From contig CAZYKO010000004.1 in NCBI GenBank assembly GCA_964648015.1, positions 101,208 through 165,207 of the forward strand: a stretch of 64,000 bases of DNA, in the 5' to 3' direction. Positions 53,356-54,858 of the stretch are shown here, in pieces. This stretch comes from an uncultured Coxiellaceae bacterium. Lineage in GTDB: Bacteria > Pseudomonadota > Gammaproteobacteria > DSM-16500. How positions within the stretch are numbered: position 1 is the stretch's first letter; each line of letters begins with the position of its first letter. The notes beneath the pieces are model-generated. The model was not told where the DNA came from, ran no database searches, and worked only from the letters and a program-made list of their open reading frames with translations. The position numbers and the translations under genes were made by a program.

Positions 53356-54210
53356 TCATCGGGAAGGGGAGATTAAAGCGTGAGCGGGAATTAATTCTCC
53401 GATTGTTTTATTAGTGTATGCATCTATTAATTGGTTATGTTCGCCTATTCTCAAAGTCAAAATACAATTTGAATATTCTGTTTTAACATAGATATGCTCA
53501 CCTTTACGTACATATTGATTACTGGTAAGAGTAACCTCATTTTTATTTTTATCAGCAGGATCAATAAGTCGGATGGAGTCTTCTTCGTGCATGTTATTTA
53601 ATCCATTTAATGTTTCAGTAGGGATTTGTAATTTCTTGTCAGTAAGACATCGATTAATATTACTTTGTAAATTAGACACGCATAGTATTTTGTCGATAGT
53701 TTTAGGACTTATTTTTATTCGTCTGCGAACCAAAACTTCATAGCAGGGATGGTTTTGTTCCACGGCATCCAAAAGAATTCTTATATCTGAAGTTTTATCT
53801 TGATCCGATGTATTAGAAAAATTGCGACCTGAGTTAAACGGGAATACAAAAAACTCCCTATTGGGAAGTATTTCTTCAGGTTTTATAACAAAGCAGATCT
53901 CTCCGTAGAATGACTTCCCGCTGTAATTAGCCCAATTAGTATTTCCAAGAAATACATAATCAATAAAACCATTTTTTGATTCTGCAATCGCATCGTTTTT
54001 CTTGATATTCTTAAGGGCTTGATGATTTGTATGAAAATATTTTCCAAATAATGTTGCTTTAGAAAATATAAAACCATCTTTAATAATATTTAATGCAGAA
54101 TCGAGAGATGTCCAATGGTATAAATAATACCTATTGTGTCCCAGAAGTAATTTTAGTTGTTCTCTTAAATAATGTGTGGGTGTAGTCATAATTCCCCTAA
54201 GCAACATCAT
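53356..54210 (-). CDS. DarT-like ADP-ribosyltransferase-fold (H-Y-E type) protein with beta-rich C-terminal extension
   Basis: The motifs YLYHWTSLDSALNIIKDGFIFS, DYVFLG, YGEICFV and CYEVLVRRRIKISPKTIDKILCV occur in the order and spacing of the DarT/DUF4433 motifs (recollection, not searched). An alternative start at ATG 54189 is preceded by AGGGGA. Confidence 0.5.
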   Translation of the reverse strand: MMLLRGIMTTPTHYLREQLKLLLGHNRYYLYHWTSLDSALNIIKDGFIFSKATLFGKYFHTNHQALKNIKKNDAIAESKNGFIDYVFLGNTNWANYSGKSFYGEICFVIKPEEILPNREFFVFPFNSGRNFSNTSDQDKTSDIRILLDAVEQNHPCYEVLVRRRIKISPKTIDKILCVSNLQSNINRCLTDKKLQIPTETLNGLNNMHEEDSIRLIDPADKNKNEVTLTSNQYVRKGEHIYVKTEYSNCILTLRIGEHNQLIDAYTNKTIGELIPAHALISPSR

Positions 54211-54216
54211 TAAAAT

Positions 54217-54858
54217 TTATTGCTTAATATTGATATCTGCTTTTTTTAAGTCATGATATAAAGCTGTGTAATTTGAAAAATAACGTTTATCGTGTGTTTG
54301 CCTATTTTCAATATACAATCGGAAACAATCATATATAAAAACTGCATTATTGCCGCAGGTATTTTGAATGTCAGGTAGATTTAATTCACCTCTATTATAG
54401 AAGTAACTTAAAGTTTCAAGGTAATCCAATAAATTGAGTAAATAAATAAAATCTTTATTTCTGGATTTGCTCATCCGGAGGGTTATTTCTGAAATATTAT
54501 ATAGTGCGACATTAAATTCGCACTTACGGCTGCCATCTTCGTTGCGATAAATATCAATAAATATTTCGTGTAATATTTGCCTGGCTTTAATAATTTCTTT
54601 ACTACTCCATCTGTTTGAGGTGAACAAAAGAAATTCATTAGCTGTTAATTTATTGGATCGATTAAATTCATAATAGGCAATAATTCCTAAGGCCACAGTT
54701 GCTGCAAAAATAAAAAAATGAACTTCTTCAGCATCATTTTTTCCCAAAAAATGAAAAAGATGAATGGGCAAGTAAGCTAAGAAAACAATTATTATTAAAC
54801 CAAGTAAAAGTTTTAACAAAATAAATATAGTTTTTTTGAATCGTTGAAGACTACCCAT
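54217..54858 (-). CDS. Membrane-anchored protein (2 TM helices + ~150-aa helical cytoplasmic domain, DUF4760-like)
   Basis: The hydrophobic segments are at residues ~10-32 and ~46-63. The segments SNRWSSKEIIKARQIL and LLNLLDYLETLSYFYNRGELN recall DUF4760 (low certainty). Its stop lies 6 nt before the next gene. Confidence 0.5.
   Translation of the reverse strand: MGSLQRFKKTIFILLKLLLGLIIIVFLAYLPIHLFHFLGKNDAEEVHFFIFAATVALGIIAYYEFNRSNKLTANEFLLFTSNRWSSKEIIKARQILHEIFIDIYRNEDGSRKCEFNVALYNISEITLRMSKSRNKDFIYLLNLLDYLETLSYFYNRGELNLPDIQNTCGNNAVFIYDCFRLYIENRQTHDKRYFSNYTALYHDLKKADINIKQ

Follow-up and report, generated by a model that had tools for sequence, protein, structure and literature searches.

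To our knowledge, DarT toxins, which are ADP-ribosyltransferases (ARTs), are known only in company with enzymatic DarG antitoxins, whose macrodomain or NADAR domain erases the modification. Here we describe a gene for a putative DarT-like ART that lacks such a partner. It lies in a stretch of 64,000 nucleotides from an uncultured Coxiellaceae bacterium (assembly GCA_964648015.1, contig CAZYKO010000004.1, positions 101,208 to 165,207), which we call the window. The candidate enzyme has the ART fold in common with DarT, and DarT proteins are its nearest solved structures (PF14487; 7omv, 7yk3, 8baq). The order of motifs is also the same, with a His in [YF]H.T followed by DY[VI]F and then by a Glu in E.L[VI]. 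As in DarTG systems, the predicted toxin gene is the first gene of the operon and is carried as cargo of mobile elements and defense islands. However, the window ART has no DarG, and its apparent partner is a beta domain of about 70 amino acids that does not look enzymatic and is mostly fused to it. The overall best explanation, to which we assign a probability of roughly 0.55, is a self-contained module composed of a DarT-family ART and its cognate C-terminal domain, without DarG and carried as mobile-element cargo.

A related arrangement is known from CapRel, a fused toxin-antitoxin in which autoinhibition of the toxin by the C-terminal domain lasts until this domain is bound by a phage protein (PMC11578894). 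CapRel and the window protein both carry an N-terminal enzyme of toxin type and a small C-terminal partner in one chain, and both have related versions in which the partner is separate. However, the enzyme folds are unrelated (a toxSAS pyrophosphokinase in CapRel, an ART here), and autoinhibition and trigger sensing are only proposed for the window protein.

The DUF2971 and Lmac_3114 proteins of Legionella (PMC12522546) also have distant DarT/Tpt1-like ART domains of the H-Y-E type, as does the window ART. Their assignment to the same family was considered and rejected; motifs and context differ. Lmac_3114, unlike the window ART, has an FFW motif, a link to adenylosuccinate synthetase and a broad taxonomic distribution. 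The PADLOC model PDC-S31 represents DUF2971, and neither group matched the window ART in the Pfam scan. No account of the family described here was found in the literature searched.

A predicted DarT-like ADP-ribosyltransferase domain

The first in-frame ATG of the ART gene is at position 54210 on the minus strand, and an earlier note on this DNA gave the product the corresponding length of 284 amino acids (open reading frame (ORF) 53356-54210). However, all ART homologues have MTTP.HY as their N-terminus, and a GGGG ribosome-binding site is located 5' of the ATG at 54189. Thus, the product most likely has 277 amino acids. Residue numbers in this text follow the 277-amino-acid scheme, and seven must be added for the longer one.

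An AlphaFold (AF2) model of the 277-amino-acid protein, made with a deeper alignment of 33 sequences, has a mean predicted local distance difference test score (pLDDT) of 91.1 and a predicted template modeling score (pTM) of 0.88. It supersedes a first model from a shallow alignment, which had a pLDDT of 64 and yielded a weak Tpt1 match alone. When the newer model was compared with the PDB by Foldseek, the top six matches were all DarT proteins, including those of Mycobacterium tuberculosis (7yk3) and Thermus (7omv, 7omy, 7omx, 7omw), at E-values of 1e-4 to 2e-3 and a probability of 1.0. Tpt1 and the OspC3/CopC ADP-riboxanases rank after them. Sequence profiles point in the same direction. The family profile matches E. 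coli DarT1 (8baq) at the His motif (E 0.044), and Pfam DarT matches occur in 10 of the 33 family members, among them P0032 with 27.0 bits, which is above the gathering threshold of 22.5, and P0031 with 21.8 bits. The window ART aligns over residues 24-178 with positions 1-178 of the 201 in the Pfam DarT profile. Searches of PADLOC, NCBIfam, PHROGs and PDB sequences with the 277-amino-acid protein gave no useful match, a PDB sequence search with P0032 gave none, and PADLOC and NCBIfam were equally uninformative for the 213-amino-acid protein encoded upstream.

We regard H25, Y78 and E151 (H32, Y85 and E158 in the longer scheme) as candidates for the catalytic residues, and the Tyr was assigned by motif order rather than by superposition. 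The His and Glu codons occupy positions 54117-54115 and 53739-53737, exactly where the earlier note had placed them, and the motifs it quoted are all present. Across the 33 sequences, which extend down to 21% identity, the residues that are invariant or at least 90% conserved are S43; G74, F75, D77 and Y78 (GFIDY); Y95 and G96; K132, S134 and D135; and E151, L153, R155 and R156 (E.LVRR). The Glu is replaced by Gln in a single member. H25 ([YF]H.T) is found in most members, at a frequency below 90%, and is absent from three that are truncated at the N-terminus. The earlier proposal of a DarT-like H-Y-E enzyme with an ART fold is upheld by the Foldseek ranking, by the Pfam score of P0032 and by the conservation of the His, Tyr and Glu positions. 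We are highly confident that the protein has an ART fold.

Among viral structures (BFVD), 30 DarT-like matches were obtained at E<=1e-3, and these include amoeba giant-virus, iridovirus, baculovirus and jumbo-phage proteins. This viral family has been noted before (PMC9503650). These model-based matches hint that DarT-like ARTs are common to the amoeba-associated gene pool. The closest viral neighbors are uncharacterized proteins of Tupanvirus, mimivirus, Klosneuvirus and Pithovirus, along with baculovirus ORF30/32 and iridovirus 422L.

Members of the window ART family are scarce. When 1.84 billion representative proteins were searched exhaustively with a profile, 50 representatives were recovered at E<=1e-3, and the named ones are mainly from Legionella, Aquicella and related metagenome-assembled genomes (MAGs). 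A decayed copy was also observed in a gammaproteobacterial MAG, where an ART gene remnant of 41 residues with 66% identity (L015, 6001-6123) adjoins ORFs for insertion sequence (IS) transposases.

The C-terminal beta domain in fused and split forms

The tail of the protein, which the earlier note had described as beta-rich, forms seven beta strands at residues 205-267 of the model. What that description missed is the status of the tail as a conserved partner that occurs either fused to the ART or as a separate ORF. Of the 33 aligned members, 29 carry the domain in the same chain as the ART. It is kept even in those of 22-28% identity, and its D-P-x-D, S-x-C and G positions are invariant. A profile search also detected a dozen stand-alone proteins of 55-82 amino acids that match profile positions ~202-272 only, and most of these begin with M-x-I-x-[VI]-x-DP.D, right at the domain boundary.

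In two Legionella species the domain is encoded by a separate ORF of 67-78 amino acids that starts 1-3 nucleotides past the stop codon of an ART of about 190 amino acids. The L. pneumophila ART (locus L006) has 191 amino acids and ends with ...IPIEEY, and an ORF for 78 amino acids homologous to the tail (6579-6815) begins 3 nucleotides later. The L. quinlivanii module (L014) is likewise split, and its small ORF (6560/6575-6778) corresponds to P0066. Short ARTs from three Legionella species share the ending ...EEY, and so the split is old and did not arise by recent frameshifting. It is located in a linker of variable length, at residues 191-200 of the model, which is a block of lower confidence (mean pLDDT 77).

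The existence of fused and split forms, in the order of toxin and then partner, is the hallmark of two modules that interact physically. The high pTM of the whole chain further suggests that the ART and the C-terminal domain of the model may be packed against each other in a defined way. It is quite likely that the C-terminal domain is the conserved partner of the ART and that the module is independent of the DUF4760 gene that lies upstream of it in the window.

Comparison of the C-terminal domain profile with Pfam and PDB sequences gave only noise, and a scan for loci that carry the domain returned one metagenome locus and zero viral loci. Structural likeness to Bas11 Gp54, Tudor and SH3-like domains (Foldseek probability <=0.25) is insignificant and was not used as evidence.

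Attachment sites and defense genes

The ART gene is located in the AT-richest part of the window, where GC content falls to 0.29 at 54-55 kb, as had been recognized before. Its stop codon is 116-120 nucleotides from a tRNA-Arg remnant (Table 1), with the two in convergent orientation, 3' end to 3' end. Between this remnant and the intact tRNA-Arg lies an insert of 2.6 kb composed of decayed genes (50622-53190), which resembles the degraded remains of a later integration at this tRNA-Arg. The att-like tRNA-Arg repeat and decayed XRE regulator that the earlier note had described as flanking the genes are both found (Table 1). The XRE pseudogene has 62% identity to the intact XRE gene of locus L013 and 54% alignment identity to that of L007.

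Table 1. Features of the window, with positions counted from its first nucleotide
Feature	Position	Strand	Basis or remark
DarT-like ART gene with C-terminal beta domain, 277 amino acids	53356..54189	-	ORF, conserved N-terminus, ribosome-binding site
DarT-like ADP-ribosyltransferase domain, residues 1-195	53605..54189	-	AF2 model, Foldseek, Pfam alignment, conserved columns
C-terminal beta domain of ~67 amino acids, residues ~204-270, DPxD and SxC motifs	53380..53580	-	Stand-alone homologues, split ORFs
Gene for 213-amino-acid DUF4760 protein with two transmembrane (TM) segments	54217..54858	-	Pfam, TM segments
XRE-family helix-turn-helix (HTH) pseudogene	54950..55186	-	ATG to ATA change at start, in-frame TAG
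tRNA-Arg(CCT) 3'-half remnant, old attachment site	53191..53240	+	45-50 nucleotides, 92-93% identical to 50577-50626
Intact tRNA-Arg(CCT), integration target	50545..50621	+	2.6 kb from remnant
S-adenosylmethionine (SAM)-methyltransferase broken into two ORFs	50722-51054, 51094-51333		Within 2.6-kb insert
GNAT fragment	52162-52326		Within 2.6-kb insert
Nitronate monooxygenase (NMO) C-terminal fragment	52636-53091		Within 2.6-kb insert

A similar placement is seen elsewhere. In L002, L011 and L013 the ART stop codon is 90-96 nucleotides from the 3' end of a convergent tRNA-Arg(CCT) that is 95-99% identical to that of the window. The L. pneumophila module adjoins the transfer-messenger RNA (tmRNA) gene (L006, L008), and in L006 the small split ORF lies between the ART and tmRNA genes and ends about 300 nucleotides from the latter. 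Altogether, the ART stop codon is 90-120 nucleotides from the 3' end of tRNA-Arg or tmRNA in five loci, including the window. In L. quinlivanii (L014), a 28-nucleotide copy of the tmRNA 3' end is present about 210 nucleotides upstream of the ART start.

The element backbones around the ART homologues include genes for an integrase, AlpA, a primase or a relaxase. Neighbors of the ART gene include RmrA, PDC-S64, PDC-S35, PDC-S31 (DUF2971), DitA fragments and AbiD, and thus the loci represent a defense-island setting. This agrees with the earlier view of the locus as a typical address for defense or toxin cargo. In L004, a SLOG/LOG-like gene (LDcluster4) lies beside a DUF6680 gene on the opposite strand (7368-8697), adjoining the ART gene and 3 kb from AbiD; these two genes are possibly another uncharacterized defense pair.

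The absence of a gene that could reverse ADP-ribosylation, also part of the earlier description, extends to the homologues. No macrodomain, NADAR or ARH family was found among the window ORFs at 50-58.7 kb or within 6 kb on either side of the ART homologues. An RNA antitoxin was also sought, but the Rfam and tandem-repeat scans returned only the two tRNAs.

Other features were observed on the far side of the XRE pseudogene. A near-perfect 19-nucleotide palindrome (ATTTTTGTCGTGTTCAGAG / CTCTGTACACGACAAAAAT, with a 9-nucleotide spacer) is located at 55286-55332, between the pseudogene and an ORF for 601 amino acids, and one half-site recurs 400 nucleotides away at 55694-55719. The palindrome could be an operator or an element resembling a miniature inverted-repeat transposable element (MITE). 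The 601-amino-acid ORF (55798-57603) is positioned between the island remnant and a corC fragment, and has weak PHROG matches only and none in Pfam. The fragment is a corC-like copy at 57625-57789, and a 90-nucleotide direct repeat with 91% identity (57632-57721 and 61905-61994) corresponds to the 3' end of the corC-like gene. The repeat suggests that another insertion, spanning about 57.7-61.9 kb, took place at the 3' end of corC.

The gene upstream of the ART gene

In the window, the ART gene is preceded by a gene for a protein of 213 amino acids that matches DUF4760 (PF15956) at residues 54-201 with 32.7 bits, above the Pfam cut-off of 25, and that has two hydrophobic segments at its N-terminus. 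This conforms to the earlier description of a DUF4760-like protein with two N-terminal TM helices. The two minus-strand ORFs of that description are likewise present, but their reported spacing of 6 nucleotides becomes 27 when measured from the DUF4760 stop codon to the likely ART start at 54189. The DUF4760 gene is probably co-transcribed with the ART gene. DUF4760 is a family without known function and, in the loci sampled, without a link to an ART.

We inspected 11 other loci that encode members of the ART family. The gene directly upstream varies between them, and the upstream proteins are unrelated to one another. An RDD membrane protein is encoded 7 nucleotides upstream of the ART gene in L002, L003 and L022. 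The corresponding products are a 310-amino-acid unknown protein in L005, a 408-amino-acid unknown protein in L007, a 286-amino-acid low-complexity protein in L009, a 308-amino-acid protein matching PADLOC PDC-S64 in L013, and a TIR protein matching PDC-S35 in L006. An integrase gene is directly upstream in L004 and L008, and a resolvase gene in L010. In L014, a gene for a 232-amino-acid unknown protein (4905-5603) comes first, followed by the tmRNA attachment copy noted above. TM segments are found in only three of the upstream proteins.

Directly upstream of the ART gene in L011 (1334-3879) is a gene for the RmrA antitoxin (PADLOC E 1e-146) followed by one for a 449-amino-acid protein with C-terminal TM segments, and these constitute a probable RosmerTA defense pair. 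The same identity was considered for the XRE and DUF4760 genes of the window and was rejected; the XRE is a pseudogene of ~79 amino acids with an HTH only and no Zn-peptidase domain, and L011 was the one locus in which a true RmrA was detected.

The two-gene cassette of membrane protein and ART put forward in the earlier note failed the co-occurrence check in both directions. DUF4760 is beside the ART gene in 0 of the 11 other ART loci, and an ART-like gene is beside DUF4760 homologues of 65%, 58% and 44% identity in 0 of the 3 loci sampled. The genes downstream of DUF4760 in L020 were also compared with the ART and C-terminal domain profiles and are unrelated. Because synteny fails both ways, the two genes are not a conserved pair, and their association is seen only in the window and in L001, which is the same locus. 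The order of XRE, variable gene and ART is shared by the window, L013 and L007, whose XRE genes are homologous and, in the latter two loci, intact. The DUF4760 gene is an independent, swappable neighbor in this variable slot between the XRE regulator and the ART gene.

Proposed mechanism

Toxicity, substrate, autoinhibition and a role in defense are properties that we infer for the module along the following lines. The N-terminal part would be a divergent DarT-family H-Y-E enzyme that carries out NAD+-dependent ADP-ribosylation, as judged from motifs and the structure model. Its substrate is most likely a nucleic acid, either single-stranded DNA (ssDNA) or RNA; this is favored because K132, R155 and R156 are basic and conserved and because the fold is akin to those of DarT and Tpt1. 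The C-terminal domain would be the cognate partner, acting in cis when fused or in trans in some Legionella, and it might bind and restrain the ART or might gate or target it, by analogy with the darT-darG gene order and with CapRel. Release of the ART could then follow upon phage infection, element loss or a similar trigger. Within integrative elements that target tRNA-Arg(CCT) or tmRNA, the module occupies the last cargo position, among defense genes.

Guided by the same known systems, we view an autoinhibitory toxin-antitoxin or defense function as plausible, at somewhat less than even odds. Slightly more tentative still is the idea that the family is an undescribed branch of the DarT superfamily in which a non-enzymatic beta domain of ~70 amino acids, either fused to the toxin or encoded directly after it, replaces DarG, and which would work as a CapRel-style single-protein immune sensor that ADP-ribosylates nucleic acid and resides near the attachment sites of islands integrated at tRNA or tmRNA genes in amoeba-associated Legionellales.

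Weighing the alternatives

Several observations dampen our enthusiasm for a self-contained DarT-family module as the explanation. TM-scores to DarT are modest, at 0.44-0.57 when normalized to the target. The assignment as a DarT-like ART is well supported, but the window protein falls outside strict membership of the Pfam DarT family, with 14.2-14.4 bits (E 0.03) and thus under the gathering threshold. H25 is replaced in two family members (P0033 and P0037), and PADLOC has no model for the ART protein. The C-terminal domain might just as well serve in substrate targeting or DNA binding. The inspected loci number about a dozen in total, which is a limited sample. The family is centered on Legionellales, a group rich in secreted ART effectors. 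Searches of the phage and plasmid collections by tblastn with both window proteins gave no match.

A dedicated two-gene toxin/immunity or defense system of DUF4760 protein and ART, with the membrane protein as antitoxin, sensor or effector, would account for the fact that both genes are intact amid decayed neighbors and lie close together on the same strand with no convincing terminator between them. The RDD protein of L002, L003 and L022, another membrane protein, and the TM segments of the L011 upstream protein fit this explanation as well. Even so, we consider it quite improbable, given that the pair is confined to one locus, that the three DUF4760 homologues sampled lack a downstream ART, and that the upstream genes elsewhere are mutually unrelated; their products are soluble in L005, L007, L009 and L013, and those of L004, L008 and L010 are integrases or a resolvase. 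Moreover, the upstream genes of L011 and L006 are otherwise explained, by RosmerTA and PDC-S35. Somewhat less improbable, although still unlikely, is that the ART is an effector translocated by the Dot/Icm system of Legionellales to ADP-ribosylate a target in the amoeba host, with the small domain or protein as a metaeffector or targeting module. Legionella has many ART effectors, DarT-like families among them (PMC12522546), the family described here is centered on Legionella, Aquicella and related MAGs, and an amoeba giant virus encodes the viral protein that matches it best in structure. However, the gene is consistently at the attachment-site-proximal ends of integrative elements, near XRE regulators and known defense or toxin-antitoxin genes, and the order of toxin and closely spaced small ORF is characteristic of toxin-antitoxin modules. 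Distant members derive from unassigned metagenomes, where the gene has other contexts, and the nearest fold is that of DarT, a bacterial toxin that targets DNA.

The ART might also serve the element itself instead of acting against phages, by killing or arresting cells that lose the island (addiction) or by modifying the incoming DNA of rival elements. It is always the terminal gene beside the attachment site, and here it has stayed intact although the integrase, primase and XRE genes of the island are lost or decayed. However, a fused toxin and antitoxin cannot exploit differential protein stability in the classical manner, the survival of the gene in an island that is decayed and immobile points to a host benefit, and the neighboring defense genes favor a defense role. 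We hold this role to be about as doubtful as that of a translocated effector.

Implications

The probable partner of the ART domain is its own C-terminal domain and not the DUF4760 protein, which corrects the pairing first proposed for this locus. If the self-contained DarT-family module is real, it would represent a second way to tame an ADP-ribosyltransferase that acts on DNA or RNA, by means of a small fused or split domain alone. It would also bring an ART into the group of fused toxin-antitoxin immune sensors. Phage defense in Legionellales is poorly studied, and the module would give a handle on both defense and mobile-element biology in this group.

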